Under the pieces are notes generated by a model that was not told where the DNA came from, searched no databases, and saw only the letters and a program-made list of their open reading frames with translations. A DNA stretch of 64,000 nt from Poseidonia sp. (GTDB taxonomy: Archaea; Thermoplasmatota; Poseidoniia; Poseidoniales; Poseidoniaceae), in contig JAYPIL010000002.1 of the NCBI GenBank assembly GCA_038127845.1, positions 2,572 through 66,571 on the forward strand, in the 5' to 3' direction. A program made the position numbers and the translations under genes. Positions 28,341 to 63,174 of the stretch are shown in pieces. The stretch's first letter is position 1, and each line of letters opens with the position of its first letter.

Positions 28341-28640
28341 CTAAGGAAGCGTAAACAAGACGTCGTCACCGTGGCCGTCAAGCCAACCTATTTTGACACC
28401 GGCATCAATCCAAGCATGGGCGTAATTGATGGCACCAAATGCCCGAACCAAATCACCAGTTTCAAGGAAGTGCCGAGCATCAGATGCATAATCATCGGCC
28501 ATGCGCAACATGATCGCAAGATGGCGCTGTTCATCGCTGCCCTCCTCGACCAGCGATGTTGCCTTGGCTCTGGCTCGTTTGGTGATGTCAAGGTACTTTT
28601 CAACACGCTGCGTGGTGACGACCTCGTGTTCGCTGGTCAC
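28341..28640 (-). CDS. DUF357-family protein
   Basis: 99 aa. KYLDITKRA...DDYASDARHFLETGDLVRAFGAINYAHAWIDAGVKIGWL matches the DUF357 helical pattern. The GTG start overlaps the upstream stop (GTGA at 28637-28640). Confidence 0.55.
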   Translation of the reverse strand: MTSEHEVVTTQRVEKYLDITKRARAKATSLVEEGSDEQRHLAIMLRMADDYASDARHFLETGDLVRAFGAINYAHAWIDAGVKIGWLDGHGDDVLFTLP

Positions 28641-29689: not shown

Positions 29690-31542
29690 CAAAGACCACC
29701 TCCATCCAAGGCTCCCCATGCAACCAGTTGGGCACGAGCCGTTTGAGTGAGTGAATAATTACGAGAACGACCGGATTGCCGCACCTGTAGAATGCCGTGT
29801 TTCAAGAGGCGATTGCTGATTTGAGAAAGCCGGGCGCGTTTGACCTTGAGATGCTGGAGCATAACGCGGTCGGAAGGCGAGAAGGGCCGGTCGTTCGCAA
29901 CGCCCACAACATAGGCTTCCACCGAATTCAAGGAGCCAAGCAGATGCTTGTCAAGGGGGAAGATTTCCTTTGGCCCAACTTTGCTTTGCGCTCTCGCCTC
30001 GAAAAAAGCCATCAATCGCTCGTGAACGGGCGAGACGCCTTTTGAAGAAGGCCCCATGGTCGTGAGCAGAGCTTCCAAGAGTTGCATCGTTTGTTCATGA
30101 TCAACGGCTTGGTGTGGAGGTGTTGGCGCCTCGAGAGATGGAGATGGCGTGCTTTCTGGCGCATCAAAAAGTGGTTCCTCAATGGCGGGCATCTCCTCGT
30201 GAATTGGTTCAGGCAAACCAATCTCATCATGAATCAACGCTGCCGACTCATCTTCTGAAACGGGTTCTGGAGCTGCTTTAGGGAGACTGGCTTCATCGAC
30301 CCAGAGTTGGGACGAGGCAGAGGCTTCCTGCAACGTACCTTGCCGGTTTTTTGCCTCAGCCCTGAATTGATCCTTCACACCAAGGAAGTCCTTGTTTCGG
30401 TCAGCAAGACGGCCAAATGGGCCACTGGTGGGGAAGGAACGGGACAGGGATGGGTCGGAAGCATCGATGATGGAGGATGGAAAAGGAGGCGGCTGAAGCG
30501 GCTCATCGTTTGATTGCGCTTCATCCAAGGCACCGATATCCAAATCGAACAGCGACATTGGAGACAATTCCTCCTCGTCATCGCCATCAACCGCCAAACC
30601 ATCCTCGTCACGTTGGTCCCATGGAATCGAAGCATCGATGATTTCGGATTCATCCTCAACACGGTCGGACAAAGGAAGGAGGTCATCCGTTCCTTCAGAA
30701 GAGACTTCATCCAAAACCGGAGTCATCAGTGACCCAAGTTGGTGGGGTTCTTCCCTCGGCTGGGGTTTGGCGCTCGAGTCGAAATACGGCTGGTACGAGG
30801 CATTGGACTGTTGCATCCGCAGGGTATCGACGGCGTCACGAAGCATGGCGATAACGGACGCAGGATAACCATCGCAAGCATCGAGGATGGTGTTGGCATC
30901 ATGAAGTGTAAATTGGCTCTCGATGACACCAACCTCTCGCAAGCGCTGCTCGACCAGTTCCAACACGTCCGGGGCAGAAAATGGACGAAGTTTGAAGGGT
31001 TCAAACCCGTTGACGACGGTAGCAGGCAGTTGATGACGTTCTTTGACATCGCATACAAGCACCACCAGGGCTTTCAAGCGCTCAAGAGATGAATGGGCAT
31101 CTCTAAGGGCAACTTCAACCACAGAAAGGTCACTGGCAGGCACGTCGATAACCACGAGCGGAAGTTTGTCGGAGTAGCCATACATTTCCGTTACGAGGCG
31201 GTTCACCAACTCGTTTCTCCCAAGAGGCGGCTCCCCTCCAATGAGTTGCTCGTAGCACATCTCCAACATCGCCTGGGCTGGAGCGCTGGCTGGGAGGTGA
31301 TCGATGGAAATGTAGGCTCCAGCATAGGGTTTGAGGCAGCGAACAAGCGATGTTCTCCCCGAGCCCAACGGACCTGTGAGCATGACACGGCGAGCAGTCC
31401 CAAGTCGCAAATAGCTCCTTAGCAGTGCGAACTGATCTTTTCTGCCCACCAGTTTTGTGGCGTCCCCTGATTCAAGCGGGCGACTTGAGAATGGATTCAC
31501 ATCCAACAACGGTAAGCCGAAAGCGTGGGTCTCTTTCACCAT
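29689..31542 (-). CDS. AAA+/STAND-like ATPase with a long acidic linker and a C-terminal winged-helix DNA-binding domain (Orc1/Cdc6-like architecture)
   Basis: 617 aa. NPFSSRP...LVGRKDQFALLRSYL, Walker A LTGPLGSGRTSL and Walker B-like LPLVVIDV. About 250 aa of Asp/Glu/Pro/Ser-rich low complexity. The C-terminal RARLSQISNRLLKHGILQVRQSGRSRNYSLT is MarR/wHTH-like. Confidence 0.6.
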   Translation of the reverse strand: MVKETHAFGLPLLDVNPFSSRPLESGDATKLVGRKDQFALLRSYLRLGTARRVMLTGPLGSGRTSLVRCLKPYAGAYISIDHLPASAPAQAMLEMCYEQLIGGEPPLGRNELVNRLVTEMYGYSDKLPLVVIDVPASDLSVVEVALRDAHSSLERLKALVVLVCDVKERHQLPATVVNGFEPFKLRPFSAPDVLELVEQRLREVGVIESQFTLHDANTILDACDGYPASVIAMLRDAVDTLRMQQSNASYQPYFDSSAKPQPREEPHQLGSLMTPVLDEVSSEGTDDLLPLSDRVEDESEIIDASIPWDQRDEDGLAVDGDDEEELSPMSLFDLDIGALDEAQSNDEPLQPPPFPSSIIDASDPSLSRSFPTSGPFGRLADRNKDFLGVKDQFRAEAKNRQGTLQEASASSQLWVDEASLPKAAPEPVSEDESAALIHDEIGLPEPIHEEMPAIEEPLFDAPESTPSPSLEAPTPPHQAVDHEQTMQLLEALLTTMGPSSKGVSPVHERLMAFFEARAQSKVGPKEIFPLDKHLLGSLNSVEAYVVGVANDRPFSPSDRVMLQHLKVKRARLSQISNRLLKHGILQVRQSGRSRNYSLTQTARAQLVAWGALDGGGL

Positions 31543-42375: not shown

Positions 42376-44940
42376 TCACTGGTAACTCGCAAGATGGAGC
42401 ACAACCGTTCCGGCCTCCAAGCTCAACCACATGGTCGCCAGCGGTGATTCGGGAGGGATGAGAGAAAACGAAGTGGCGCCCGAAGGTAAGTCGGTGCCGT
42501 TCCAATTGTGCTGCCATTCGTCACCAAAACTCCCTTCTCTGGTCAGCCGGAAGGGCACAGGTTCATCGCTCGGATTGGTGATGGTGAAGGTCGCCATTTC
42601 GGTGTTCAACAGCGTCCCGTTTGATGCAATCGCCCAAGGTGTGGACCAGAACCGGGTGCTGGTCCCCATCCAGGAAATCAGCAATTCAGGCCCTTCCTCA
42701 ACAGCGAAGGCAACACGAGGGTACGGAGAAAAGAGATCGTCGCAAAGTGAAACGTTGGTGCCATCAACCATGAGAAGCGTGAGGTTCTGTTCAGCCTCTA
42801 CCAGCGGGAGATAGCCCGAGGAACGAACGGTTGTGTCCCAAACCCACGCTCCACCGTCCATCGGTCGCGGGGGTGTGCTCAGGCTTGCGTTCAACGGACA
42901 TTGGTCTTCGTTGGCGAGAAGGATTCCTCCCTCTGCAAGCAACGCCCCCCATCCGAAGTCGGGATCCGAGGTGATGGTCCACCCGCTTACAGGAACATAC
43001 GCTGTGACCGGCCTGCGTTCGGGAAGAAGTGGGGTAAAGGTGTCGTTGTTGAGATGAAGCGTGGCCATGGATGGTTGGAAGACCAACGGGTCGAGTCCTG
43101 AAAGGCAGACTCGGTCGGGAACATCGGTGTAGTTAGCCTTGAGTTCCTGAGAGCCGTCCATCAGCACAAGCGGGGTCTGGACGTGTTCGAGGCCCGTTGC
43201 ATCGATTTCAATGGAAAGCCACGAGGAATTGACCAGTGCTCCTTGCAAGTCAACGCAACGAAGAACGGTTGAGCCGTCAAGGTCGTCGTACCAGCGCTGA
43301 GAGGGAACCACTTCGAGGGCGGGGCGAACGCTGAACGGAACCGTTTCGTAGCCGTCGTTGATTTCCAGCATGTAGGTGCCCGTTGCCATGGTCGGCTGCA
43401 CGGTGCCGTCCCATGTGAGGTTCAGCCAGAAAAACGCCGTTCGCTGGGGCAACAGGTCAGCACCGCATCCCTCTCCGTTGAACGTACGTGTGTCCTCACC
43501 ATCACAGTCCCATTCCACGTTCCAATCGTGCTCATCGTATGCAAACGAAGCGTGAATGGCATAGGGTTGACGCAAGGAAGATGGATTGGTGATTTTGACC
43601 ATCGTTCTCGAAAGCCAAGAACCGTCTTCCTGGAGAACGGCCACCTCAGGTGCTTGCAACTCAAAGGTGAGGTCAGCATTCCAATCATCGTCGTGAACAA
43701 CCGGTTGGGATGCAGGCAACATCAACACGAAGACAACCAACAGCAACATGCCCATGCGGCGGTGGTCCTCCTCGCGCAGGCCCGTGGTTTCGTTGAGAAT
43801 CAACGGTATACGGAGATCGTTTCCAAAGAAAAACAACAACGGCAACAACAAGGCGAACACGAGGAACCACAGTGAGAACGCTTCGAACACGCCGAAGACA
43901 TAGGCACAGAACAGCACGATAACGAAGATCAAACTCTGTGTGCTTGAGCTTCTCGCTTCCAACATTCCCATTCGAGCAATCAACAAACGACCACCGGGGA
44001 ACGTTGGTATGGGAAGAATCGAGATCCAAGCGAAGAGCATCAACATGCCCCCAGCGTGAACCCACGGGTGCGCCCAAATCAAGCGGACCCACGCATCCTC
44101 ACCAACCAGTTCAAGGGCAAGTAAACTGAGGAACACGGGCGGCTCGGTGAACAACGGCATCACCGTAGAGGCCAGATATTCAGGGGTCATCCTCAATCCC
44201 GACAAAAAGAGGACGGCTCCAAAGATGCTCAGCACCACGGGGACGGCCAAAGCCGTGAATCCCAAAGATGCACGGTCAGGCCAAGGGCGAGCGTCCATCC
44301 TCGGGAGTGTTGGCAGTAAGAGAAGGCCAAAAGGCCAAAACAACCAGTTTGAGGGGAACAAACCAATGGCGTAGAGGGCGATGGTAAAATCCGGCACCGG
44401 AAGAATATGGCCGCATCGCACACCGTATCGTGCGGCGAGACGCTGTTGAACGAAGGAGGCGACGATGAGAACGCCGAGAATGGGGAGGGTGTAGCCCAGC
44501 AGGGCATCGAGCAGCGAGGACGTGTGGAGCCATCCTTCCGTGGGCCGGCTCGACGTCATCCAAAAATGACCGGCGAGGGTCAACGTTAATGCCGAAAGCC
44601 CCCAGAAGATCAGCAAGGTGTTGAAACGAGGAAATTGGCGCTCGGGTGTCGGGAAAACGGTGATGACCCAACCTTCGTTTCTGGTGAGTTTTGCCATCCA
44701 GCCAAGCCGATCCAAGTGCCTGTTGAGTTCTTTCAGGTCATCGTGAACATCGTCTGACTTCGGGCTGATGGACCATGCTGGCCATCGGCCTCCGTTTTCT
44801 CCGTGAACCTCCACGTATTGCGCAAGCGCTGAAGCCAACAAATCATGTTGCGACCAAGCATGACGGTGGTGAGGAAGGGGAGTTTGGTCAAGTGATTCGT
44901 CGCTCACGCACGTTCCCCCTACCGTGTTGGTACGACCCAT
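42376..44940 (-). CDS. Site-2-protease (M50)-like polytopic membrane protein lacking both catalytic motifs, fused to a C-terminal extracellular domain of about 450 aa
   Basis: 854 aa. LIVASFVQQRLAARYGVRCGHILPVP aligns to the M50 hhhHExxHxxxArxxGv block, with SFVQQ (44443-44457) replacing HExxH. ISILPIPTFPGGRLL (43990-44022) aligns to NLLPxxPLDGG with both N and D replaced. The C-terminal half is non-membrane, Trp/Asn/Thr-rich and has several N-x-S/T sites. Confidence 0.55.
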   Translation of the reverse strand: MGRTNTVGGTCVSDESLDQTPLPHHRHAWSQHDLLASALAQYVEVHGENGGRWPAWSISPKSDDVHDDLKELNRHLDRLGWMAKLTRNEGWVITVFPTPERQFPRFNTLLIFWGLSALTLTLAGHFWMTSSRPTEGWLHTSSLLDALLGYTLPILGVLIVASFVQQRLAARYGVRCGHILPVPDFTIALYAIGLFPSNWLFWPFGLLLLPTLPRMDARPWPDRASLGFTALAVPVVLSIFGAVLFLSGLRMTPEYLASTVMPLFTEPPVFLSLLALELVGEDAWVRLIWAHPWVHAGGMLMLFAWISILPIPTFPGGRLLIARMGMLEARSSSTQSLIFVIVLFCAYVFGVFEAFSLWFLVFALLLPLLFFFGNDLRIPLILNETTGLREEDHRRMGMLLLVVFVLMLPASQPVVHDDDWNADLTFELQAPEVAVLQEDGSWLSRTMVKITNPSSLRQPYAIHASFAYDEHDWNVEWDCDGEDTRTFNGEGCGADLLPQRTAFFWLNLTWDGTVQPTMATGTYMLEINDGYETVPFSVRPALEVVPSQRWYDDLDGSTVLRCVDLQGALVNSSWLSIEIDATGLEHVQTPLVLMDGSQELKANYTDVPDRVCLSGLDPLVFQPSMATLHLNNDTFTPLLPERRPVTAYVPVSGWTITSDPDFGWGALLAEGGILLANEDQCPLNASLSTPPRPMDGGAWVWDTTVRSSGYLPLVEAEQNLTLLMVDGTNVSLCDDLFSPYPRVAFAVEEGPELLISWMGTSTRFWSTPWAIASNGTLLNTEMATFTITNPSDEPVPFRLTREGSFGDEWQHNWNGTDLPSGATSFSLIPPESPLATMWLSLEAGTVVLHLASYQ

Positions 44941-51135: not shown

Positions 51136-53187
51136 CTATGATTGCCCCTCCGTATGGAGGGTGCGACCGCCAATCGGGGTAAAAACCCGACCGGAGCCGT
51201 CGTAGAACTTGCCCATCCACTCAACGAAGTGGAGACGGGCTGCGTGGATGCTCGGGGAGAGCAAACCAAGCGCGAGTGCGAATGCTTGAATGAAGAGGAA
51301 CAACACAAGGCCGAGGACAATGGAAACGATGCCGCTTCCCGACCACATCAGATCCCATCCCATCGTGATGGACACTTCTGCGATTTTGACACCGGCAACG
51401 CCGACGCCCATGACACGCAGGTAGGACAGCGTATTGGCGAGCAATCCGAATGTTTCGATAGGGCCCATGATGAAGCCGCCCGCCCATCCAAACTTCTCAA
51501 AGACGGCCAAGCCGATGATAAGGCAGCCGACGCCAGCGAGGGTGGCAATTGCATAGGGCGTCAAGTCAAACACACCTTGGTCGGTGGTGAGGAAGCCATA
51601 GATGTGGAGCGTTCCAGCGGCCAAAATGATGATCCAACTTCCCTTTTCGAAGAAGGCTGCTACAACGCCGTGTGCTCGTGCCACGTTGATGAAGCCGAGA
51701 ATAAAACCGAACATCAGGTGGGCAACGCCGAGGTAGACCGAGAGCAGAACGTATTCGCTGAGCGACGAGGTGGCTCGATGGAAGGGGATTTTGGTGTAAC
51801 TCATGTTGAGCGTCTCCGTAACGAAGGCAGGGAAGTGGATGTTGTTGTACGTCCACGTGTAGAACGCAGCCAGCGGAGAGGCATCGCCCATCTGACCGGT
51901 ATTGTCCCAGACAAACCCGAAGCCTTCGGCGAATAAGAAGCCCCAAATCATGCACCAAACGCCCATCCACTTGAGAATGGTGATGCCGTTCTTGGCGACC
52001 GGGTCAGCAGCGAAGGGTTTCGTGCCGAGCCAAAGCGCAAGAAGGAAGATGACGAATCCGTAGCCAAAGTCACCCAAAATCAACCCGTAAATCATCGGGA
52101 AGGTCAGCATGAGGAAGAAGGTGGGATCAAAGGTGCCGTAGGTCGGGCGACCGACCAAACCAACCATCAGCTCAAACGGCCGAGACACCGCATCGTTCTC
52201 CAAAGCCACGGGAGGTGTAGGCTCTTCGTGGTGGTGGTCGTCGTGGTCGTCGTCGTGATGGTGATGATGGTCGTTCACAAAAGCCTCGATTTCAATGTGA
52301 GAGGCCATGGAGTCGAGTGCTTGGCGCACATCAGCACCCTTTGAAGTCGGCACCCATGCATCAAGCGCAAAGGCTTGACCGGTGACGGCGAGTTGCGTTG
52401 GAGCGGTGTGAATTTCGTCTTCCTTGGAGAGGTACTCGTGGATGGCGAGGATGTTGCGTCCGTTGTTGCGGGCCCAGCGAGTTGCGTCTTCTGAAGCAGA
52501 GTACATTGTCCCTTCAACTTCCTTCCGCTTCGCCACCAGACCTTTCAGGGCTTCAGAAGCAGACCCGTCAATTGCGGGCACCTGCACGGGTTTCCCGCCG
52601 AGTTCACCAAGTGCCATCTGCACTTCGGCCCCTTCGCTTGGAAGGCAGGCAACAGCCACGATACCGGGTGCGGAAGCGAGTTGGACTTTGGAAGCCAAGG
52701 CGCCGAAAACGCCTCGTGCTTTGCTCGCCTTCTTGGTTTCGGAAACATACACTTCCACACGGTCGGAGCCGGCGAGGAGGTCGAGATCCATGTTCAACGG
52801 GGCGAGGCGTTGCAACAGGTGAATCTGTTCATCGAGCGAGGCGAGTTCGGCCTCTGCATCCCGTTGGGTGTCAAGCAGGTCAAGGCCCTTCTGAAGTTCC
52901 TCGGAAAACGTGCCGTCAAGCAGTTCTTTGACACGCTGAAGCGGAACGGGGCCGTCGCCGTTGACGGGCTTGAACGCTGAGACGGCTGCTCGGACCTTGG
53001 CCAGAAGCGAGCTCACGTGGTTGGCTTCATCGGATTCAGCGGAGCGACCCACCTGTACGCCGTCCTCAAAGTTCGTGTACGACTCGATGTGAACGCATCC
53101 TAGGTTGGTGCATGTTCGCAAGACGTCCGCCATACGGTCCACGGGGGCAGCCACGGTCAGTCGTGACATGGCTACCGTGTCAAACAT
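51136..53187 (-). CDS. atpI: A-type ATP synthase subunit I (a-subunit homologue)
   Basis: 683 aa. N-terminal cytoplasmic domain plus about 7-8 TM segments. The C-terminal LSYLRVMGVGVAGVKIAE contains the conserved stator Arg context. Confidence 0.85.
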   Translation of the reverse strand: MFDTVAMSRLTVAAPVDRMADVLRTCTNLGCVHIESYTNFEDGVQVGRSAESDEANHVSSLLAKVRAAVSAFKPVNGDGPVPLQRVKELLDGTFSEELQKGLDLLDTQRDAEAELASLDEQIHLLQRLAPLNMDLDLLAGSDRVEVYVSETKKASKARGVFGALASKVQLASAPGIVAVACLPSEGAEVQMALGELGGKPVQVPAIDGSASEALKGLVAKRKEVEGTMYSASEDATRWARNNGRNILAIHEYLSKEDEIHTAPTQLAVTGQAFALDAWVPTSKGADVRQALDSMASHIEIEAFVNDHHHHHDDDHDDHHHEEPTPPVALENDAVSRPFELMVGLVGRPTYGTFDPTFFLMLTFPMIYGLILGDFGYGFVIFLLALWLGTKPFAADPVAKNGITILKWMGVWCMIWGFLFAEGFGFVWDNTGQMGDASPLAAFYTWTYNNIHFPAFVTETLNMSYTKIPFHRATSSLSEYVLLSVYLGVAHLMFGFILGFINVARAHGVVAAFFEKGSWIIILAAGTLHIYGFLTTDQGVFDLTPYAIATLAGVGCLIIGLAVFEKFGWAGGFIMGPIETFGLLANTLSYLRVMGVGVAGVKIAEVSITMGWDLMWSGSGIVSIVLGLVLFLFIQAFALALGLLSPSIHAARLHFVEWMGKFYDGSGRVFTPIGGRTLHTEGQS

Positions 53188-54381: not shown

Positions 54382-55185
54382 TCAAGCGATACGTTCCACG
54401 GTCTCCGGGGTGATCCCTTCCTCGGGCGTCACCCGGAACACGAGGATTTTCAGGTTCTCCGGAGCGTTTCGGAATTTGGAGACGATCATTGAATTTTCAA
54501 AATCCGTACCGATGGTTCGAACTTTGAACGACAGCACCATGTCGGCAATGGACGAGAGTTCTTGCTTGATCGATGGGTCTAATCCGTCGGTTGAAACACT
54601 GATCATCAGCAGCCCACGAACCATCTGAGCGTGCGCTTGAAGCATACGAACCATGGACACAACCCGTGCTGGGTCTTCACGCTGAAGGAAGAAATCCAGG
54701 TTGTCCAAAACGGCTCTGAAGTACGGACCAAGCCCCATGATCTCATTCGTGACTTCGGTGAGGTAATCCTGGTTGTTGTCATCAACAAACCGCGTTTGAG
54801 CGAGGCGCTGAATATCGGCGAGTTGGAATCCCTCGAGTCGGTAGCGACTGGCGAGCAGTTCGCGCTCGAGGACGTTGGCGTTGTATTCTTCACCGATGGT
54901 ACGGACATTGATGTCCAGCGGCCACCCGTATTTTTGGAAGATGCGAACAATCTCTTGTTGCCCTTCATCGGTTGCGATGTAGAGGGTGTTGTCGGGCTCC
55001 TCGGCAGGAGAGGTAAACTGCTTGGCAAACAATTCGCTTCCCGACCCGGTCTCGGTGAAAGCGATCATGGTGAACCCTCGGGGAACACCACCGCGCATTT
55101 CGCTGTCGAACTTCGGCACACCGAAAGAGCCGACGCTACCGAAAAATTCCTCATCCTCGGGGTCAAAGGTCATCTTTCTTGCCAT
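54382..55185 (-). CDS. KaiC/RecA-superfamily paralogue with a degenerate Walker A
   Basis: 267 aa. GGVPRGFTMIAFTETGSGSELFAKQF aligns to the KaiC-like GGlPxGsxxLixGxpGtGKTxfaxQF, but GKT is replaced by GSE. A RecA-like core follows (AVLDNLDFF...MISVS). Perfect GAGGTGAT ribosome-binding site. Confidence 0.6.
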   Translation of the reverse strand: MARKMTFDPEDEEFFGSVGSFGVPKFDSEMRGGVPRGFTMIAFTETGSGSELFAKQFTSPAEEPDNTLYIATDEGQQEIVRIFQKYGWPLDINVRTIGEEYNANVLERELLASRYRLEGFQLADIQRLAQTRFVDDNNQDYLTEVTNEIMGLGPYFRAVLDNLDFFLQREDPARVVSMVRMLQAHAQMVRGLLMISVSTDGLDPSIKQELSSIADMVLSFKVRTIGTDFENSMIVSKFRNAPENLKILVFRVTPEEGITPETVERIA

Positions 55186-55196
55186 GCATCATCACC

Positions 55197-55796
55197 TCAG
55201 AGAAGAACCACCTGACCCCGGTCGATGAGGTCGGTGCAGTACGTGTCCAAGTTCGCTAACACCAACGGTGGCGTTTGGTCTGGAACGTTGAGAATCACGG
55301 ACAGAACCTCGCGTTGTCGGAAGGTGTTGATGAAGGTGTGGAGGTACTCTGCAAGCATTCGGTCGTCGTTGTAAATGGCGAGCGCATTGACGCTGTCGAG
55401 GAAGACAAAGTTTCGCTGGTTGTTCACCGTACGAAGGGTGTAGAGGGTGCGCAAAAGAATGCTCTCCAGCATGATGGGGCTGTCAATGAACGTGATGTTG
55501 GGGTAGGGCACATCGGTCCCACCGAGCACACCAGAAGAGACAAGGTCGAGGAAATGAATGCCAGAAACATCAACGCCAACCGCTTCAAAGGCCTGAATGA
55601 TTTCGACAGCACCTCTGCTTGCTGAGATGTACACGCCACCCATCTCAAACATCTGCATGAGCGGCACCATGGTGCTGGCCGTGACGGCGAAGGTGTTGGC
55701 TGCGCTCATCCGAACCTGAACGGAACTGCTCAGGGAGACTTGGGTCAGTTGTTCTGCGATTCGCTGATCGAGTTCAAACATGTTCACTGCCCCCAT
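55197..55796 (-). CDS. Short KaiC/RecA-like paralogue lacking the P-loop
   Basis: 199 aa. No Walker A. FVFLDSVNALAIYNDDRMLAEYLHTFINTFRQREVLSVILNVP resembles the Walker B/beta-strand core of KaiC-like proteins. It overlaps the upstream gene by 13 nt (alternative ATG at 55781). Confidence 0.45.
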   Translation of the reverse strand: MGAVNMFELDQRIAEQLTQVSLSSSVQVRMSAANTFAVTASTMVPLMQMFEMGGVYISASRGAVEIIQAFEAVGVDVSGIHFLDLVSSGVLGGTDVPYPNITFIDSPIMLESILLRTLYTLRTVNNQRNFVFLDSVNALAIYNDDRMLAEYLHTFINTFRQREVLSVILNVPDQTPPLVLANLDTYCTDLIDRGQVVLL

Positions 55797-56566
55797 CTGG
55801 ATGTTTTGTCACCCGAAGCGCCCCATTTCAGCATGGGAATGAGCATCACGCCCAAGGGTGTGAGTTCGATTGCATGCTTGGCCCGACTGTGCGACGTACC
55901 TCTCATCTTGACGACTTGCAAGAATCGAAGCAAGTGCCCCATGCGCTCAGCATCACCCATGACAATGATGCCGTCGGCGATGGCTTCTTCCACACCAAAC
56001 GACGACCAGTGCGCGTTCTCCGTAGCCGAAGTGATTTCGGAAATCAGAATGGTCGTGCACCCGAGTGTCGCCAACTTCTTCCCGAGGGTAAAGAGGAAAT
56101 CTCGAATCAATTGTTCGGATTTAATCTTGTAACAGAGCGTGGTGACTGAATCGATGACCAACCGGGTGACACCGATGGTGTTCACGATGTCCACGATGGA
56201 TTTGATGAGTGCGTGCACGTCGTCAAGGTCGAAGGAGGCTTTCTCCAATCCGAGCCACGAATACAACACGTCCATGTCAAACACGTTGATGAGACCCGAA
56301 TCGACCATGTTCATGTCAAAGAACGCATACTGACGGATGTTCTCAAGCAGTTTCACCGAGGGTTCCGTGGCGGTAAAGTGGGCACAAGCCTCACCGGCCA
56401 GCGCACCCCGAACGAGGAATTCCATGCCGAGCGTGGTTTTTCCGGAACCGCAGGTCCCAGCAGCGAGAACCGTTGACCCGTAAGGAATGCCGCCTCGCAA
56501 AATCTCATCCAATCCGTGGATGCCCGTTACGCATCGATCTCGTGTGTAAACGCTGCTAGGCTGCAT
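55784..56566 (-). CDS. KaiC-like RecA-superfamily ATPase (intact Walker A and B)
   Basis: From ATG 56566: VTGIHGLDEILRGGIPYGSTVLAAGTCGSGKTTLGMEFLVRGA, RLVIDSVTTL, TTILISE, VVKMRGTSH. This is the canonical single-domain archaeal KaiC/Rad55-like pattern. Confidence 0.8.
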   Translation of the reverse strand: MQPSSVYTRDRCVTGIHGLDEILRGGIPYGSTVLAAGTCGSGKTTLGMEFLVRGALAGEACAHFTATEPSVKLLENIRQYAFFDMNMVDSGLINVFDMDVLYSWLGLEKASFDLDDVHALIKSIVDIVNTIGVTRLVIDSVTTLCYKIKSEQLIRDFLFTLGKKLATLGCTTILISEITSATENAHWSSFGVEEAIADGIIVMGDAERMGHLLRFLQVVKMRGTSHSRAKHAIELTPLGVMLIPMLKWGASGDKTSRWGQ

Positions 56567-56632
56567 GGGACCAAACAGGAGGAGAGGCCGCAGGTTGATG
56601 AAGTGTTTGCAACACACCAATCAGAACCGAGG

Positions 56633-57718
56633 TCAAGACGAGGGATGGTCTCCCGGAGATGACGTGTCCTCCACGCTCCACGACGACGAATCAAATCGGT
56701 CATCTCCGTCCCACACAAGGGATTGGCCGGTACTCATGAACAAACCCGTCTGCCCGCCCCACGCGACCTTGAAGACATCAGCGGGAGCGACCTCGTCAAG
56801 TTGCGTGTATCTTAGACGGAGCACGCCCTGACCGTCAGCAAGTCCGTTGAGTTGTCCCACACCGAGAAAACCTGCTTGACCAAGGTCGACGATGTGCGTG
56901 GCATTGCCCTGTTCTTGGTTGGTTGGATCTCCCGTAAAAATGGAGAGGGATTGACCGGAAAGGACACCTTCCTGCAGCAAGACATTGGATGATGTTGAGC
57001 CGGAAGTGTGGTTGAGCGACCATCCCTTAAGGGCAACAGCGAAGTCGTTTGGATTGAACACTTCAACCCACTCTGGACCGTTCGCAGATGGGCGAGTCAT
57101 CACCTCCGTCAAGTGGAGTTGGTTGGCTTTTCGGCCACCGTCGTGAACTTCGAGAACCACTCGAATCAGCTCTCCTTCCTGTTGGAACGAACGGTAGGAC
57201 GTGGAGGAGGATGGTGCGGATGTTCGGTCGGTCCCACCACGGAACAGGAGTTCACCGACCCGAGAAGCATTGTTGCTTTCAACCACTTGAATGGTCAAAT
57301 GCAGCGACATGTCGTCGGCCAAACCAAGTCCTTGCGCCATGCCTTCCTCCGTAACGTTGTGAAGGGCCTCAATTCGGTCCATATCAAGCCGATGCGCGAG
57401 AAGCAAACCCGGCTGAACCCGGCCGTTGTCGAGGGATGCTGCATCGTGAAGATGCCAATCCTCCGTGGCGTTGCCGTAGTCAAGCCCTCCGTCCATGGGA
57501 ACGAACCAGCCCGGCCCCGAAGTCAATCGGTCCAATCCAACCGCAGCCGCACGGTCGAGACGGTCAACGTCAGGGTCGTTGGAACCCATTTGCAATTGGG
57601 CCAACGAGAGAAAGGCGGTGAGGATCATCAAAAACAAGGTAAATGCAGAAAGAAATTCAATCACGGCGGTGAGACCTCCCTCATCCCGTTCGGTTTGAGC
57701 GAACGAGGGGTTCCGCAT
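56633..57718 (-). CDS. TadE/pseudopilin-like N-terminal anchor protein with a C-terminal lamin-tail domain (LTD)
   Basis: 361 aa. The N-terminus ERDEGGLTAVIEFLSAFTLFLMILTAFLSL resembles TadE/class III signal-peptide pilin N-termini (G-x-x-A-V-I-E-F followed by a hydrophobic helix). The C-terminal EWVEVFNPNDFAVALKGWSL...VLRL matches the LTD pattern. Confidence 0.6.
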   Translation of the reverse strand: MRNPSFAQTERDEGGLTAVIEFLSAFTLFLMILTAFLSLAQLQMGSNDPDVDRLDRAAAVGLDRLTSGPGWFVPMDGGLDYGNATEDWHLHDAASLDNGRVQPGLLLAHRLDMDRIEALHNVTEEGMAQGLGLADDMSLHLTIQVVESNNASRVGELLFRGGTDRTSAPSSSTSYRSFQQEGELIRVVLEVHDGGRKANQLHLTEVMTRPSANGPEWVEVFNPNDFAVALKGWSLNHTSGSTSSNVLLQEGVLSGQSLSIFTGDPTNQEQGNATHIVDLGQAGFLGVGQLNGLADGQGVLRLRYTQLDEVAPADVFKVAWGGQTGLFMSTGQSLVWDGDDRFDSSSWSVEDTSSPGDHPSS

Positions 57719-57875
57719 GGACCTACCAAGCCCTTGCGCTTCATGAGGTTGTTGCTGACGAAGAGCACGTCAACGGCGTCTGATGAAAACGAGGCTCGCT
57801 CCTGATGCCTTAAACACGATAAAAAAGGGCCTCCAAAGCGATGAGTCTTTGAAGCACGGATGCGAGGGAGTCTTG

Positions 57876-60824
57876 ATGAGCGAGCGAAAGCAATGCAACA
57901 AATCGCAGAAACGAGCGGGTTTGGGCTTCGTGCTCATGCTTCTTCTTTCATCGCTCGGGGCACTGGCCGTGTCTCCGACAGCGAGCGCTGCCGTATCGGG
58001 TTCTCTCGGTATCACGACGAGTTCCAGCCCGGCCCCCGACGGATGGTACAACTCCATGGACGCCATCGAATTCACCGCAGAGGTGACCAACCACTACCTC
58101 TCACCATCTGGAGCCACCCGGACCTTGACATGGTATGCTTGCTCAGGAGAAGTGGACGAGGCGGACTGCAGGTCCGTCTTCTCTGCCACCGGTTCATTTG
58201 CGATGCAAAACATCAACGGAAACAGCACGCTTACCGTCCCATCGCCCAGTTCATGGACACCGGGTGGCTCTGCAAATGGCATCTTCACCATCCTGTATTC
58301 GTTCTCCAACAACGACCAAGACGCCACCGATGACGTGTTGTTGTTCAACATCAACCTCACGCCCAACTACGTCGATGCAACCGTTCAGAAGAACCACAAC
58401 CCCCTCGAACACCTCGAAAACCTCTCCACCTACGCCAACGAACGGGTCTTGAACACCGGGACCGATTATGTCCTCAAAACCAAAGGCGAAGCCACCATTT
58501 GCTCCGTGTGTGCGTTCACCGGGGAATTTGGATGGCAGCTTTGGGATCTGGACGAAACGATGTTGCTGAAAGAAGCCTATCGCTCGGTGAGCAACCTGCC
58601 GGCTTGGGGCGGCCCCTCGCCGTTCAACATGAATCTGCCCGAATTCAATTTTAACCAAGAAGGGCGATTCCTGCTCAAGCACGGCTTGTTCAACAGCACA
58701 GGAAACCCCTACGGCGACCTCAATCCAAACAACGACCTCGCAACGTTTGAACTGGTCCTCAACGACAGCATTGACTTGAAGGTCGTCAATGTCTATCCGA
58801 GCCACAGCGCTCAATCCTCCTCGTTCTATTACGGCACAGAACGCATCGTCGCCGAAATCGCCAACGTTGGCAACACGACGGTTGAATCGATCACGGCGTC
58901 CTTCCAAGTCTACGACCAACAGTACGAGTTGGAAGTTTCCGATTCCTGTGACATTGACATCATGCACCCCGGCGCAACCGAAACATGTCGCTTCAACTTG
59001 ACCACCACCGGAGCCTCACGTTTGCTACGGGTCCAACTCCCGACGATTTACACCATCGGCGAAGACGTACGGATGGGAGACAACCTCTACTCCATCACCA
59101 CCAACGTGGACGTCGGCCCCATCAACGCCAACATCCAGATCAATTCCGACGAAAAGGTGTTCTTGAGCACAGACCATGTTGAGTTGGTGGGCCGATTCAG
59201 TGACGTGGCATCTCAGCCGCTCAATTACACGTGGAGAGAAGGATTCTACACTTGGGGCCACGGACAAATACTCAACCTCACCGGGGAGACCTTCGGGCTC
59301 GGGCCGCACAACATCTCCGTTCAAATCCAAGACCCTTGGGGCAACACCGATTACGCCTACGTTGAATTTGATGTTCTCAATTCCGTCAACATCAGCCATG
59401 AGCCTTATTGGACCGGTACGGCAACAACCGACAAAGAAGTGACCTTTGCACACGAAATCATGTTGCCTCACCTTGGCGTCTCGTACAACATCGGACAAGG
59501 GAAATCCCCTCTGATGCTCATCGATCTGGCGCTCGAAGGCACCAACGGAGAGGACAACGGCCTGCGGGCCATGAACCTCGACCTCAATCTCTCAGCCATC
59601 CTCCCGGACAACATCGACCTCTCAACCGTCGACCTTCGCTACCTTCCCGACACGGAAAGCCAACTTTGGACCTACATCGAAGGCGAGGATTCCTTCACCT
59701 ACGACCCGTTCGCTGAAACGATGTCGTTGACGATGACCAAAGACGGTGTCATCCTCATCATCGGCGTCCTCCCCGACGCCAACGTGACGGCCACGAACTT
59801 TGAGTGGACACAACGCAAAGGCGGCCAAATTCAACTTGATTGGGAGACACAAGGGGACATCACCAACCCTTACGTCGGCGGCTGGAAGATGTTCAAGATT
59901 CAAGGCATTGCAGGAACGACGGTTTTCCCAGACCCCGCTCTGGGCGTAAGCGATGCCATTTGGGAAGAACTTACGCTCAACACCTTGGTCGATACGCTCG
60001 AGCTCTCCTCGACGCAATGGATTGACCCTGCCTTCCTCGAAACGGGCATCTGCGCCTCCTATGCCATTGCGCCCATCGACCGGGAAGGTCTGCCAAACTA
60101 CGACATGATCAACATCACACGGGTCAACGGAGCGGCAGGGCTGCTGTGTGGGGACGCCATTCCTCCGTCCACCAGCGTTGAGCAATTTTCCCATACGTGG
60201 TTGTTTACCAACAGCACAGCGTGCTTTGACCTCTACAAAGATTGGTCGTCCTGCTACGAGGTCACCCTCTCGTGGACGTGGCCGGACCACGAGGCCCAAG
60301 GAAACGTCACGTGGAACTTGTACAGAATAGAATATGCCCCAGACAATGTGAATTTGAAATTCATTGAGCCCATTGCAGAAGGCCTCACGGGTGTGCCGGG
60401 TGAGTCCGGTACGTTCTCGCAGGACGGCATGGAAACCGATGGCATCCGCCCCTACCGGACCTACTACTACATCCTCGCCCCAATCGACAGCGTCGGAAAC
60501 GAATTGTTGCTGGCCAGTTACCCGTCTCCCAACATCGAACGCGTGCACATCGACGATGACTGGTGGACATACAACCAGCACGTGATTCCTCCAGAGCCGG
60601 AACCACCGGAGCCACCCCTTGGCATTCCTTGGTTGCAGAAATTGAACGATGCAACGCAGGTTTCTGAATTCCAGTTGGCTGGCGTGGTCATGTTGGCGAC
60701 CATTTTGCTGAACTTCATCCTCTTGCCACTCATTCTGAAAAAGCGTAAGCGATTGAAGCGTATCATGGAAGCACGCAAGCGAAACGTGGCTGCTTCGACG
60801 GAGTTTGACGACTTCTTTGAGTGA
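57876..60824 (+). CDS. Large secreted surface protein (CARDB-like and FN3-like modules) with a C-terminal TM anchor
   Basis: ATG 57876 gives MSERKQCNKSQKRAGLGFVLMLLLSSLGALAVSPTASA (signal peptide); the track start is 57783. IDLKVVNVYP...IVAEIANVGNTTVESITASFQVY is CARDB-like. VTLSWTWPD...WNLYRIEY...YRTYYYILAPIDSVGNE is FN3-like. The terminal LAGVVMLATILLNFILLPLILKKRKRLKR is a TM anchor plus basic tail. Confidence 0.6.
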   Translation: MSERKQCNKSQKRAGLGFVLMLLLSSLGALAVSPTASAAVSGSLGITTSSSPAPDGWYNSMDAIEFTAEVTNHYLSPSGATRTLTWYACSGEVDEADCRSVFSATGSFAMQNINGNSTLTVPSPSSWTPGGSANGIFTILYSFSNNDQDATDDVLLFNINLTPNYVDATVQKNHNPLEHLENLSTYANERVLNTGTDYVLKTKGEATICSVCAFTGEFGWQLWDLDETMLLKEAYRSVSNLPAWGGPSPFNMNLPEFNFNQEGRFLLKHGLFNSTGNPYGDLNPNNDLATFELVLNDSIDLKVVNVYPSHSAQSSSFYYGTERIVAEIANVGNTTVESITASFQVYDQQYELEVSDSCDIDIMHPGATETCRFNLTTTGASRLLRVQLPTIYTIGEDVRMGDNLYSITTNVDVGPINANIQINSDEKVFLSTDHVELVGRFSDVASQPLNYTWREGFYTWGHGQILNLTGETFGLGPHNISVQIQDPWGNTDYAYVEFDVLNSVNISHEPYWTGTATTDKEVTFAHEIMLPHLGVSYNIGQGKSPLMLIDLALEGTNGEDNGLRAMNLDLNLSAILPDNIDLSTVDLRYLPDTESQLWTYIEGEDSFTYDPFAETMSLTMTKDGVILIIGVLPDANVTATNFEWTQRKGGQIQLDWETQGDITNPYVGGWKMFKIQGIAGTTVFPDPALGVSDAIWEELTLNTLVDTLELSSTQWIDPAFLETGICASYAIAPIDREGLPNYDMINITRVNGAAGLLCGDAIPPSTSVEQFSHTWLFTNSTACFDLYKDWSSCYEVTLSWTWPDHEAQGNVTWNLYRIEYAPDNVNLKFIEPIAEGLTGVPGESGTFSQDGMETDGIRPYRTYYYILAPIDSVGNELLLASYPSPNIERVHIDDDWWTYNQHVIPPEPEPPEPPLGIPWLQKLNDATQVSEFQLAGVVMLATILLNFILLPLILKKRKRLKRIMEARKRNVAASTEFDDFFE

Positions 60825-60825
60825 T

Positions 60826-60912
60826 TGGCGCGGCAGGGGAGATTCGAACTCCCGAGGTGAGACACCACCGGATTAGCAATCCGGCGCAATGGCCAGGCTA
60901 TGCGACTGCCGC
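60826..60912 (-). tRNA. tRNA-Ser (anticodon GCU), class II with a long variable arm, 3' CCA encoded
   Basis: The reverse complement folds by hand: acceptor GCGGCAG/CTGCCGC, D-arm GCA-TAGCCTGGCCAT-TGC, anticodon stem CCGGA/TCCGG with loop TTGCTAA (GCT), variable arm TGGTGTCTCACCTC (GGTG/CACC stem), T-arm GGGAG-TTCGAAT-CTCCC, discriminator G, then CCA. Confidence 0.9.
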
Positions 60913-60985: not shown

Positions 60986-61996
60986 CTACAGTGGGCCAAG
61001 GAAACCAAGCCATTCCTCGGGGATGAAAATGATCAGAACCAACGACAAGAACATCCAGCCGAGATAGAAGAGACTTCTGAAGAAGGACGTCGCTGCTTTC
61101 GGCATGCGACCGTTTTCATCGAAGGGCTCCAACGGGTCAATGGCCCAGACCGATTGAGCGTACCACAACGTGAGGCCACCGGAGACGAAGGCCCAGAGCA
61201 AGGGGAGACCCGATTCTGGCCAAAAACAAGGCACGGAGCCCAGCATAAACAGGAAAACACAGTACATCTTGGATTGCTTGACGGTGTATTCAGGCCCCTT
61301 CACCTCGTTCATCATCGGGATGTTGACTTTACCATACTCACCAGACCTGTACAGGGCCAGCGCCCAAAAGTGTGGGGGGGTCCAGAGGAAAATGAGGAAA
61401 AACAGCATCCACGGGATGGGCGACCCGAGATCAAACATGTTGGCGTTGGCAATGGATGGCCCTGCTGCTGCAGCCCAGCCAATCAAGGGAGGTGTTGAGC
61501 CAGCAATACCGCCGATGACGATGTTTTGAGGGGTGCGACGCTTCAACCAAATGGAATAAATGAACACGTAAAACAACACCGAAAACGCTGACCAAAAGGC
61601 TGCCTTCACGCTCACGAGGAGGAACAACGCCGAGCCCAAAACAGCGATGATGGAGCCAAACACCAAGGCAAACATTGGTGTGGCATGCCCGAGAGGAATC
61701 GGCCGGTTCATCGTTCGACGCATGTGAGGGTCAATGTCCGCATCGTACCACATGTTGATGGCGTTCGATCCTCCAGCGGAAAGGGTCCCACCTACCAGGG
61801 TGATGCAGGCCACATAGAGTGTATCCCCCCACGTTCGCTGGACATCAATGGCACCGTACCTTGCCAGCGTGTCATGGACGATAATGGCGCACAGAGCCGT
61901 GATCTGGAGCAGAACGATGACCCTCAATTTCATCAATTGCGTCATAACCTTGAGCAGGCCGGGTGATGCGTTTGATGGAGCGACGGTTTCGCTCAT
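60986..61996 (-). CDS. ctaB: Protoheme IX farnesyltransferase (heme O synthase)
   Basis: 336 aa. GGSNAINMWYDADIDPHMRRTMNRPIP, multiple TM segments, and WTPPHFWALAL typical of CyoE/CtaB. ATGA overlap with the ctaA stop. Confidence 0.9.
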   Translation of the reverse strand: MSETVAPSNASPGLLKVMTQLMKLRVIVLLQITALCAIIVHDTLARYGAIDVQRTWGDTLYVACITLVGGTLSAGGSNAINMWYDADIDPHMRRTMNRPIPLGHATPMFALVFGSIIAVLGSALFLLVSVKAAFWSAFSVLFYVFIYSIWLKRRTPQNIVIGGIAGSTPPLIGWAAAAGPSIANANMFDLGSPIPWMLFFLIFLWTPPHFWALALYRSGEYGKVNIPMMNEVKGPEYTVKQSKMYCVFLFMLGSVPCFWPESGLPLLWAFVSGGLTLWYAQSVWAIDPLEPFDENGRMPKAATSFFRSLFYLGWMFLSLVLIIFIPEEWLGFLGPL

Positions 61997-63099
61997 TCCT
62001 GCTCAACCCCTACGCTTGAAGCCGTGGAATGCGAGTCCAGTGTGCCCATAACATCCAGCCCGAATCGAGCAAATCGAGCGCTGAATGTCGTGTGAACGGC
62101 TGCCAAAAACGCGGACACGCCCACCACGAGGTGCATGAGTGAAAGCCATTCTGGGAAGTCACCCACTTTCGCAAACACAACGTAAGAGCCACCGACGACG
62201 ACGTTGAGCATCCAAAGCCCGGTGGTGATTTCTGCTGACCGCAGGATGGCCGCAGTGCCCGCTTGGTTCTCGGAGGACATTCGCATGTTGCTGATGCTCA
62301 GCACCAAGACAAGCCCAACGACGAGTGCTCCAAATCGATGAATCATTTGAATGAAAATACCCGGGCCATCCAACGACGGAAGGAAGGAACCTTGGCACTT
62401 TGGCCAGCCGTTCGGGAAACCAACCGAACAGCTCTGGTTGTATTGTCCTCCGGCAGATGAAGACACCCATGCGCCCAAGACCAACAACAGGCCAACCGCA
62501 GCGGTGATGCCGTAAATTCGCTTCATGTGGGCTTCAAGAAAACGAACCGGTGTGGCCATCATTTCCCACTGTGCGCCCTCTCGGAGGCGCATGGCCATGT
62601 ATTGCCACATCAAGCCGGCCGTGAAGATACAGGCCAAGGACAGGTGAAGGGCAACCGTCCAGTCAGCGTTGTCAAAAACGACGGTGATGAAACCTGCCGC
62701 CCCCTGAATCAACAACATCACGGCAGAAAACACAGCTGCTCTCGAGATGGGAATGCCGTAGACCTTCTGTTGCCGCCGAGTCATGAGCACGTTGAGAAGG
62801 ATGGGAATCGCAATGATTCCGACAAGCAAACGGTGAAACCACTCAACAAAAATCTGGAAAATCGTGTACCGGTGGTCGGGGCCCCTCGAGTCAACCTGTT
62901 CGGGGTTGTCCGCCCAGTAGGCTGCTTGGTCGTCTTCGGACACCACGAAGTGCCATGTACCGAAGCATGTGGGCCACTCGGGGCACGACTCGCCAGCATC
63001 GTTGATTCGAATCGAACCACCGACAACAACGATGAGCAGGGCCATCACAACAAGAAGCAAAGGCAACGCGGACGGCCGACGCCACCATGAAGCCTCCAT
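61993..63099 (-). CDS. ctaA: Heme A synthase (CtaA/COX15 family)
   Basis: GESCPEWPTCFG (Cys pair), conserved His residues in TM helices (EWFHRL, MIHRFGA, LMHLVVG). The track start is TTG 63162. ATG 63099 (MEASWWRRPSALPLLL) leaves a 75-bp divergent spacer. Confidence 0.8.
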   Translation of the reverse strand: MEASWWRRPSALPLLLVVMALLIVVVGGSIRINDAGESCPEWPTCFGTWHFVVSEDDQAAYWADNPEQVDSRGPDHRYTIFQIFVEWFHRLLVGIIAIPILLNVLMTRRQQKVYGIPISRAAVFSAVMLLIQGAAGFITVVFDNADWTVALHLSLACIFTAGLMWQYMAMRLREGAQWEMMATPVRFLEAHMKRIYGITAAVGLLLVLGAWVSSSAGGQYNQSCSVGFPNGWPKCQGSFLPSLDGPGIFIQMIHRFGALVVGLVLVLSISNMRMSSENQAGTAAILRSAEITTGLWMLNVVVGGSYVVFAKVGDFPEWLSLMHLVVGVSAFLAAVHTTFSARFARFGLDVMGTLDSHSTASSVGVEQE

Positions 63100-63174
63100 G
63101 GAAGGATGTGAGAGCAGACCCCTTTTGAACAAATGCCTCGCCCCCTGTGCATGGGTTCCCAACGGTGGAAGACG

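Follow-up and report, generated by a model that had tools for sequence, protein, structure and literature searches.

Archaeal homologs of KaiC that have lost their activity are said to take part in signaling, within the KaiC "hub" concept that Makarova reportedly set out in 2017. ATPases of the KaiC family turn up repeatedly in association with type IV pilus (T4P) loci of archaea, which they are predicted to regulate according to a 2016 census (PMC4858521). ArlH (FlaH) forms a ring with ArlI and gates assembly via nucleotide binding and autophosphorylation: the unphosphorylated protein hexamerizes and binds ArlI, and phosphorylation weakens the binding (PMC10983859). CirA, another KaiC-like protein, affects the regulation of pilin-dependent motility in Haloferax volcanii (PMC10983859). 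Here we analyze a locus on a 64,000-nucleotide stretch of DNA from Poseidonia sp., a member of the Poseidoniaceae in Marine Group IIa (GenBank assembly GCA_038127845.1, contig JAYPIL010000002.1, positions 2,572 to 66,571 of the forward strand; hereafter the window, with positions counted from its first letter). Four of its genes encode LTD361, a membrane protein with a lamin-tail domain (LTD), and three KaiC-like proteins, namely KaiC260, which appears from its motifs to be the sole catalytically competent member of the trio, and two pseudo-ATPases, p199 and p267. Sequence comparisons indicate that the KaiC and pseudo-KaiC core is an old and widespread pilin-linked operon of the Thermoplasmatota, and that the LTD gene and a divergent glycoprotein gene are Poseidoniales-specific additions to this older ATPase core.

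The trio resembles ArlH, itself a protein of about 230 amino acids, in its single-domain KaiC/RecA fold; FlaH structures rank at the top of the fold matches found for p199, and the ArlH model matches p267 in its C-terminal half. It differs from ArlH in that the scores within the trio are 35 to 48 bits against a cutoff of 215, in that its genes do not lie in an archaellum operon and have a pilin or LTD protein gene as neighbor rather than those of ArlI and ArlJ, and in that there are three paralogs here, two of them without a working P-loop, whereas ArlH is a homo-oligomer. CirA and the present locus both tie a KaiC-like ATPase to type IV pilins, there through the pilin H-domain and surface-structure control (PMC10983859) and here by gene adjacency. 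However, cirA lies in the arl cluster and not beside pilin genes, no pseudo-ATPase partners of CirA have been described, and its mechanism in Haloferax appears to be transcriptional. The hub concept is close as well, in its expanded KaiC ATPases near T4P loci and their predicted regulatory role (PMC4858521). Rad51-paralog and Rad55-Rad57 complexes likewise pair dead or weak RecA-fold subunits with an active one. This likeness is only architectural; the RadA, RadB and RecA models score far under their cutoffs, and the gene context gives no hint of DNA transactions. Finally, several uncharacterized archaeal KaiC-related families (DUF7090, DUF7504, DUF7125 and DUF835) come near the pseudo-ATPases: p199 (weakly to DUF7090) and its relatives match DUF7090 and DUF7504, and p267 matches DUF7125, with the window proteins below the Pfam gathering threshold (GA) of all four. 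The four genes are as follows.

56633..57718, minus strand: LTD361, lamin-tail-domain membrane protein, 361 amino acids (open reading frame (ORF) list, Pfam)
55784..56566, minus strand: KaiC260, single-domain KaiC-like, CI-like ATPase, 260 amino acids
55197..55796, minus strand: p199, KaiC-fold pseudo-ATPase, 199 amino acids (194 from the probable start at 55781)
54382..55185, minus strand: p267, KaiC-domain pseudo-ATPase, 267 amino acids

All four ORFs are co-directional, and the ORF list bears out the tight packing described by the initial annotation, with gaps of 66, -13 and 11 nt. The 66 nt separate the LTD361 stop from KaiC260, whose ATG sits within a longer TTG ORF. The p199 ORF overlaps the KaiC260 stop by 13 nt, and its better conserved alternative start, ATG 55781, lies 2 nt past that stop. 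The 11-nt spacer between p199 and p267 holds GAGGTGAT, which is Shine-Dalgarno-like. Equally tight spacing or overlaps are found in distant loci. By this tight spacing, KaiC260, p199 and p267 are translationally coupled. Downstream of p267, the window continues with a UbiE-type methyltransferase gene and then the A-type ATP synthase operon.

KaiC260 matches the Pfam KaiC family (PF06745; GA 26.6 bits) with 178.7 bits (E 1.5e-52), and its nucleotide site is complete: it has the Walker A motif GTCGSGKTT, the catalytic Glu (TATEPS), the Walker B motif LVIDSV and a KMRG finger strand, in line with the canonical KaiC-like ATPase first proposed from GTCGSGKTT and VIDSV. Its best matches in the Protein Data Bank (PDB) were the CI domains of cyanobacterial KaiC and the Pyrococcus KaiC-like proteins PH0186 and PH0284. 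Among the NCBIfam models, KaiC260 groups with archaeal KaiC-domain families, every score being far under the cutoffs for true KaiC, ArlH/FlaH and RadA/RadB; against the ArlH model NF052589 it reached 35 bits. p199 gave no match to NF052589, and neither p199 nor p267 matched the RadA/RadB models. By curated cutoffs, none of the three proteins belongs to ArlH, true KaiC or RadA/RadB.

p267 is a KaiC domain by both Pfam (55.8 bits, above GA) and PDB profile. Its P-loop reads TETGSGSE, and in alignment A1 the family form is G-x-x-G-[SA]-G-x-[ED] in 14 of 14 diverse members. The P-loop Lys and the Mg-binding Ser/Thr are gone in every Poseidoniales p267; the decayed P-loop noticed in the single sequence is thus a family-wide state. 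The family retains Glu74, a Walker-B-like VLDNLDFF and a K-F-R-N finger strand, which aligned with KMRG/KMRQ in a whole-length PDB profile alignment to SSO2452 and KaiC. The KMRG/KMRQ strand carries the trans-acting finger in KaiC-type rings. The resemblance of p267 to the ArlH model NF052589 was confined to its C-terminal half (residues 158 to 260, E 8.6e-13), and its 48.5 bits are far under the cutoff.

p199 scored 20.5 bits against Pfam KaiC, which is below GA; two relatives, P0381 (33.5 bits) and P0385 (30.3 bits), exceed that threshold. In the family alignment A7, p199 is without a Walker A motif, the catalytic Glu and the Arg-finger strand, and it keeps a Walker-B-like FLDSVNAL together with the family motifs DSP-MLE and Y-N. 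An AlphaFold2 (AF2) model built from a 40-sequence family alignment had a mean predicted local distance difference test (pLDDT) of 91.3 and a predicted template modeling (TM) score of 0.88. Foldseek placed PH0284 (2dr3; E 1.5e-6, TM 0.67), FlaH (4yds) and KaiC CI on top, with TM scores of 0.6 to 0.68 and a coverage of 177 to 200 of 199 residues. Because the AF2 model is confident and the Foldseek matches span the whole length, p199 is a complete KaiC/RecA fold without a nucleotide site. The initial annotation was therefore right about the missing Walker A motif and wrong in taking the protein for a RecA-core fragment, and its broader picture of one catalytic subunit with two degenerate RecA-fold paralogs agrees with the motifs and folds (Pfam and PDB profile for p267, AF2 and Foldseek for p199). 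Profile comparisons were less telling: a PDB profile search with p199 gave KaiC at E 0.0034, HHalign against KaiC and against p267 was uninformative with thin alignments (effective number of sequences about 1.6), and a deeper p199 family alignment gave E 0.002 at a probability of 13%.

HMMER searches with p199 retrieved 564 relatives in 1.84 billion representatives, mostly stand-alone proteins of 185 to 200 amino acids; in one homolog search, all the matches listed were >92% identical. Some other proteins carry the p199-type domain at their C terminus, in fusion with dCache-HAMP, TPR/SNAP-like and DUF835 domains (P0462, P0413, P0443, P0415 and P0431), one TPR/SNAP-like fusion being a 1776-amino-acid protein from an Altiarchaeota metagenome-assembled genome (MAG). 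These fusions suggest, from domain architecture, a general archaeal signaling output or adaptor domain, and the Cache-HAMP, TPR and DUF835 partners fit the archaeal KaiC signaling-hub picture. Two seemingly strong matches, P0364 and P0412, were discarded as artefacts: they are a translated tandem DNA repeat of about 50 residues and score high because 36 and 11 weak repeated matches, respectively, are summed. In a published MG-II genome (CM001443.1, locus L053), the p199 ortholog at about 9414-9989 contains a short stretch of masked or unknown bases, giving X in the translation, and its annotation there may be broken.

The link to pilins is clearest outside the Poseidoniales. A metagenome scan with the non-Poseidoniales p199 family gave 498 relatives; 80 loci were retained and annotated by custom hidden Markov models (HMMs). 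KaiC lies directly upstream of the p199-like gene in 59 of the 61 evaluable loci, and all 57 loci evaluable for a pilin gene have one no more than 400 nt downstream; the canonical A|VSPVIATILMVAITV signal was present in 72 of 78 pilin matches. A third, p267-like gene occurs in 10 of the 80 loci. The pattern of intact and eroded sites recurs in these relatives, a canonical Walker A motif being found in 62 of 75 KaiC proteins, in none of 80 p199-like proteins and in none of 10 p267-like proteins, 9 of which have K[VL]RN. Gene orders vary: KaiC, p199-like and p267-like in L093 and L098; KaiC, p199-like and pilin in L096; KaiC and p199-like with a pilin 1.4 kb away in L094, a Methanomassiliicoccales MAG; the trio plus two pilins in L179; and the trio beside a beta-helix surface protein in L180. 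The KaiC/p199 operon was also found in soil, sediment and methanogen-related lineages. It is these KaiC and pilin adjacency counts that point to an old, widespread, pilin-linked ATPase/pseudo-ATPase core. The four genes are thus not a single indivisible unit: the core is KaiC and the p199-like protein, sometimes with a p267-like protein.

Within the Poseidoniales, four lineages of the Marine Group IIb (MGIIb) type, the majority of those sampled, have a gene for a protein of 164 to 192 amino acids right after p267, with the class III signal …A|VSPVIATxLLLAITV…. Pilin_N is above threshold in three of the four, at up to 39.8 bits; the ortholog in L087 was found by tblastn only. Together with the 57 loci above, these pilin genes strengthen the connection to type IV filaments that had been proposed from the window. 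tblastn found no pilin gene in the 80 Marine Group IIa (MGIIa) loci L001-L080, and the Poseidoniaceae thus appear to have lost it from this position. One Thalassarchaeaceae lineage (L081:10825-11841, also L082 and L083) carries a polytopic A24-type peptidase-like gene convergent on p267; its product scores 26.7 bits against Arc_PepC_II, just below threshold, and has a GGADAK motif. This motif is typical of A24 prepilin peptidases. No pilin gene adjoins it in L081-L083.

A genome scan gave 302 loci with p267 relatives, and the best 80 (L001-L080), all MGIIa, were examined; the source names of the p267 homologs are Poseidoniaceae and Thalassarchaeaceae. Where the contig allows, all 80 are syntenic, in the order CtaA, CtaB, surface protein (divergent), LTD, KaiC, p199, p267, methyltransferase and ATP synthase. 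MGIIb-type loci retain the surface protein, LTD, KaiC, p199 and p267, so the four genes co-occur in relatives as had been anticipated. Because the downstream genes differ in MGIIb, we place the ATP synthase neighborhood outside the module: the adjacency to the ATP synthase noted by the initial annotation is real, and we rejected it, with that to the UbiE-type methyltransferase, as part of the module on account of its MGIIa-only synteny. Identities within MGIIa are 89 to 99% for KaiC260, 43 to 92% for AtpI and 44 to 78% for LTD; those to the deepest Poseidoniales lineage are 77% for KaiC, 53% for p199, 52% for p267 and 30% for LTD. At 77 to 99% identity, KaiC260 is among the most constrained proteins of the region. 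One of the 80 loci, L025 (NZEQ01000091.1), comes from a MAG named "Verrucomicrobiales bacterium" and holds the whole Poseidoniaceae locus in full synteny, with a p267 that is 96% identical; this contig most likely entered that MAG as a contaminant through faulty binning.

LTD361 carries the lamin-tail domain that had been assigned to its C terminus (Pfam LTD 36.9 bits, GA 34.3). It is bitopic, with a short N-terminal tail, a hydrophobic helix TAVIEFLSAFTLFLMILTAFLSLAQL after a conserved Gly/Ala, an alpha/beta domain and the lamin-tail domain. Its AF2 model (mean pLDDT 71.8) has a 31-residue helix at positions 13 to 43 and a second helix at 49 to 66, which packs on a confident alpha/beta domain of about residues 49 to 193 (pLDDT of about 90 for 50 to 190); the C-terminal beta-sandwich was modeled with lower, moderate confidence. 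Foldseek matched LTD361 only to the lamin Ig fold (lamin B1 and lamin A/C; probability 1.0, E 1e-3). The N terminus follows the pattern [DE]-x-[GA]-[LIM]-[TI]-AVIEFL-AF-LFL-I--AF across the Poseidoniales, and its AVIEFL-AF-LFL-I--AF core is invariant at an overall identity of 36%. The helix is about 30 residues long and hydrophobic with an invariant early Glu, and the rest of the protein diverges. All 21 aligned orthologs have Gly/Ala at position -1 and Asp/Glu at -2 or -3 (alignments A2 and A5). Nevertheless, neither Pilin_N (PF07790) nor TadE (PF07811) matched full-length LTD361 or its N-terminal fragments even at E<=10, when a neighboring MGIIb pilin used as positive control scored 39.8 bits on Pilin_N. 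HMM scores thus place LTD361 in no pilin family. Because no pilin or TadE model matches, we treat the pilin-like pattern as a resemblance at the level of the motif; of the TadE or class III identity first suggested for this N terminus, the TadE part has no HMM support and the class III signal remains a likeness of this kind.

Three further features lie on the other side of, or within, the intergenic region upstream of LTD361.

57876..60824, plus strand: large surface glycoprotein, divergent from the LTD operon (mechanical ORF from 57783)
57839..57853, minus strand: 15-mer TTCAAAGACTCATCG in the divergent intergenic region (alignment A9)
57739..57752, minus strand: semi-conserved motif (G/A)CAACCTCATGAAG, some 20 nt ahead of the start codon of LTD361 (alignment A9)

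The glycoprotein begins with a signal-peptide-like segment, ends in a transmembrane anchor and contains a Pro/Glu-rich linker as well as 17 N-x-S/T sequons; wherever a Poseidoniales locus extends far enough, it has an ortholog (25 to 70% identical) divergent to the LTD gene. The divergent orientation thus agrees with the description of a 1000-amino-acid CARDB/FN3 surface protein in the initial annotation, although CARDB itself scored below threshold in the 1013-amino-acid ORF (19.6 bits, GA 22.7). Alignments with homologs start near residue 23 to 35; Met32 corresponds to position 57876, is preceded by GAGGGAG and is followed by a signal-peptide-like segment. The real start is likely ATG 57876, the mechanical start at 57783 being too early, and the first 31 codons (57783-57875) are then likely a 5′ untranslated region (UTR) or promoter. 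This stretch contains the 15-mer and an AT-rich ACGATAAAAAAGG (about 57816-57828).

The 15-mer lies 22 to 37 nt upstream of the glycoprotein ATG, directly before the Shine-Dalgarno-like GAGGGAG. In 73 MGIIa loci it is matched exactly and in 3 others with one mismatch, always at the same position (coordinates of about 7311-7384 in L001-L080) and once per locus, with a single occurrence in the window; the proteins flanking it in those loci are just 30 to 70% identical. It was not present in the MGIIb or other loci examined, and no conserved hairpin surrounds it. We regard it as a candidate operator or 5′ UTR element shared by both transcription units, and as such it speaks for a joint regulation of the glycoprotein gene and the LTD-KaiC operon. 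Of the 80 MGIIa loci, 54 contain the motif (G/A)CAACCTCATGAAG with at most two mismatches; the window copy has one. Beyond the glycoprotein gene, a tRNA-Ser (GCT) gene (60826-60912, minus strand) begins 2 nt past the glycoprotein stop, and behind it come CtaB and CtaA, the genes for heme O/A synthase (60986-63162), an arrangement kept in MGIIa loci; Rfam models found only tRNA in the window.

With moderate confidence, we propose that the active KaiC and the two pseudo-ATPases form a cytoplasmic hetero-oligomeric complex serving a type IV pilin-like surface system; the cluster is probably involved in controlling or building an adhesion structure on the cell surface. In such a complex, KaiC260 alone would bind and hydrolyze ATP. 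Because the Lys and Thr of its P-loop are lost, p267 would be unable to bind or hydrolyze ATP, and it would instead offer its Lys/Arg finger strand in trans, with a catalytic Glu, to a neighboring site. p199 would be a pure scaffold or adaptor subunit. The complex may act on the cytoplasmic face of the membrane, gating the assembly, display or expression of surface proteins of the class-III-signal type, either in the manner of ArlH, as partner of a filament ATPase whose gene lies elsewhere, or in that of CirA, as a regulator sensing the pilin-type helices pooled in the membrane. Its targets in relatives would be the adjacent pilin; in the Poseidoniales they may be, additionally or instead, the LTD protein with its pilin-like helix and the co-regulated giant glycoprotein. 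Genes elsewhere would then have to provide the filament ATPase, platform and peptidase, which could be supplied by the archaellum operon that all Poseidoniaceae genera carry and for which an adhesion role has been proposed (PMC6461757). Gene content, motifs, folds, conservation and gene neighborhood are what the analysis shows; hetero-oligomerization, membrane-proximal action and pilus or adhesion control are all three steps that we infer.

Several observations count against this proposal. The interaction among KaiC260, p199 and p267 is itself one that we infer, and gene adjacency fits regulation, assembly and mere co-expression alike. A Pfam pass and tblastn found no FlaI/PilB, FlaJ/PilC, A24 peptidase or pilin gene in the 64-kb window, as the initial annotation had stated for the first three; MGIIb pilins and the A24-like peptidase used as tblastn queries had no match there either, no FlaI/PilB, FlaJ/PilC or peptidase gene was seen in the examined locus flanks, and T2SSE and T2SSF family genes were absent from both the window and the flanks of related loci. 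Since the pilin gene is absent at the Poseidoniaceae locus, the T4P link there rests on the LTD N terminus, which matches no pilin or TadE HMM. A FlaFind-type pattern fits only about half of the LTD orthologs and does not fit the one in the window (E-G-G-L-T-A). The LTD361 alpha/beta domain (about 49 to 193) found no match with Foldseek, to pilins or otherwise. Finally, L180 and L098 have the trio without an adjoining pilin.

Four other explanations deserve consideration. The genes might form an envelope module, in which the glycoprotein is S-layer-like or an adhesin, the LTD protein its anchor or organizer through an uncleaved helix, and the KaiC trio a general envelope-tuning hub, all without T4 filament machinery. 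The strict co-conservation of the glycoprotein and LTD genes, divergent in all Poseidoniales loci with the invariant 15-mer between them in MGIIa, would fit this, as would the signal peptide, many sequons and C-terminal anchor of the glycoprotein, the failure of pilin and TadE HMMs on the LTD N terminus, the large extracellular proteins that flank the trio in L180 and the presence of p199-type domains in generic sensor fusions. We nonetheless consider it unlikely: it leaves unexplained the 57/57 pilin adjacency outside the Poseidoniales and the pilin after p267 in MGIIb, and the invariance of the whole LTD helix, including its buried Glu, is more typical of pilin-like packing than of an anchor. 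More improbable still is an autonomous motor, a KaiC/pseudo-KaiC ring that extracts or assembles the pilin and LTD protein in place of a PilB/FlaI-type ATPase, at least where that is lacking. The ATPase-pilin operon coupling is near-invariant, no PilB/PilC lies in the 6 to 10 kb flanks, and KaiC260 is under extreme constraint. The idea is notable because Methanomassiliicoccus genomes are reported, in the 2016 census, to be without any secretion ATPases (PMC4858521), yet the Methanomassiliicoccales MAG L094 has the operon. Against it, no membrane platform partner was found at the loci; the KaiC-like proteins studied (ArlH, CirA, GvpD and KaiC) regulate and are not translocation motors; the Poseidoniaceae have an archaellum operon with FlaI/FlaJ (PMC6461757); and the absence of PilB/PilC in operon carriers was judged from locus flanks. 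If true, it would mean that in the Thermoplasmatota a RecA-fold ATPase, independently of PilB, displays or assembles class-III-signal surface proteins (the pilin and the LTD protein), a job done by secretion-ATPase hexamers in all type IV filament machines known, and it would explain why a pilin gene is locked to the operon in lineages reported to be without secretion ATPases.

The remaining two explanations seem to us very improbable. The trio could be three RadA paralogs forming a Rad55-Rad57-like complex on DNA, with coincidental surface neighbors. Some homologs carry the source name "RAD55 family ATPase", the combination of an active subunit with degenerate paralogs resembles Rad51-paralog complexes, and MGIIb loci have MutS/MutL and gyrase genes no more than 10 kb away. 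But these genes are on separate transcription units and not at the MGIIa locus, the persistent partners are a pilin and membrane proteins, and KaiC260 scored 13 to 22 bits with the RadA, RadB and RecA models (cutoffs 172 to 361) as against 110 to 179 bits with the KaiC models. Hardly more credible is a timer, that is, a minimal KaiC clock or hourglass driving daily surface-protein changes in these proteorhodopsin photoheterotrophs. It is brought to mind by the cyanobacterial KaiC CI domains as best sequence matches of KaiC260 and by the Haloferax cirA transcript, which oscillates with light and dark (PMC10983859). KaiC260, however, has one domain and 260 amino acids, whereas circadian KaiC is a tandem of CI and CII of about 500; its scores against the circadian KaiC equivalogs were 130.6 bits (NF006799, cutoff 408) and 97.3 bits (TIGR02655, cutoff 546). 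At the positions of the CII Ser/Thr phosphosites it has Glu-Glu/Ala, as in CI (aligned by eye), no KaiA- or KaiB-like gene lies at the locus (no such Pfam family in the window or related loci), and the operon also occurs in the soil, sediment and methanogen-related lineages. A defense role for the locus was rejected because PADLOC gave no defense-system signature, only a weak mad8 match to KaiC260 (21.9 bits).

Elsewhere in the window, an insertion rich in His and Asp, HHHHHDDDHDDHHHEE, separates the cytoplasmic from the membrane part in subunit I of the A-type ATP synthase (51136-53187); the N-terminal part of this subunit is very variable, since the best tblastn match begins about 1.3 kb further into the gene in some MGIIa loci. 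Directly downstream of the ATP synthase D-subunit gene, 42376-44940 encodes an 854-amino-acid protein without a Pfam match, whose N-terminal half has many transmembrane segments and whose large C-terminal half looks extracellular. Two overlapping and nearly unannotated genes lie at 28637-31542 on the minus strand: the 617-amino-acid product has a weak N-terminal AAA_16 match and a long acidic, Pro-rich middle, and the 360-amino-acid product has no match.

The originality of the system first claimed for this locus holds only partly. The association of KaiC ATPases with T4P has already been described (PMC4858521), and inactivated KaiC homologs in archaeal signaling reportedly have been as well. 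What is apparently new is the fixed operon together with its Poseidoniales additions. The accessible text of PMC4858521 has no fixed operon of a KaiC, a P-loop-less paralog of about 190 amino acids, an optional paralog without the Lys and Thr, and a pilin, and no near-universal ATPase block in the Poseidoniales with LTD, glycoprotein or 15-mer additions. The searchable literature likewise does not describe the fixed operon, its near-universality in the Poseidoniales or the LTD and glycoprotein additions, and it mentions neither DUF7125, DUF7090 and DUF7504 nor the Poseidoniales together with KaiC.

The Poseidoniales are the most abundant planktonic archaea of surface oceans (PMC6461757). Their attachment to particles or algae has so far been inferred only from the archaellum operon, and the present cluster, found in every Poseidoniales locus examined, is a specific candidate for controlling or assembling adhesion structures on their surface. 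To our knowledge, no member of the Poseidoniales has been cultured to date; some Methanomassiliicoccales-related archaea have been. The occurrence of the cluster in all Poseidoniales loci examined, the constraint on its ATPase and the 57/57 pilin link mark it as an adhesion-structure candidate in the latter archaea as well. With an active KaiC enzyme fixed in one operon with two differently eroded pseudo-enzymes, it also offers a clean natural case that may be useful for questions about KaiC "hubs".

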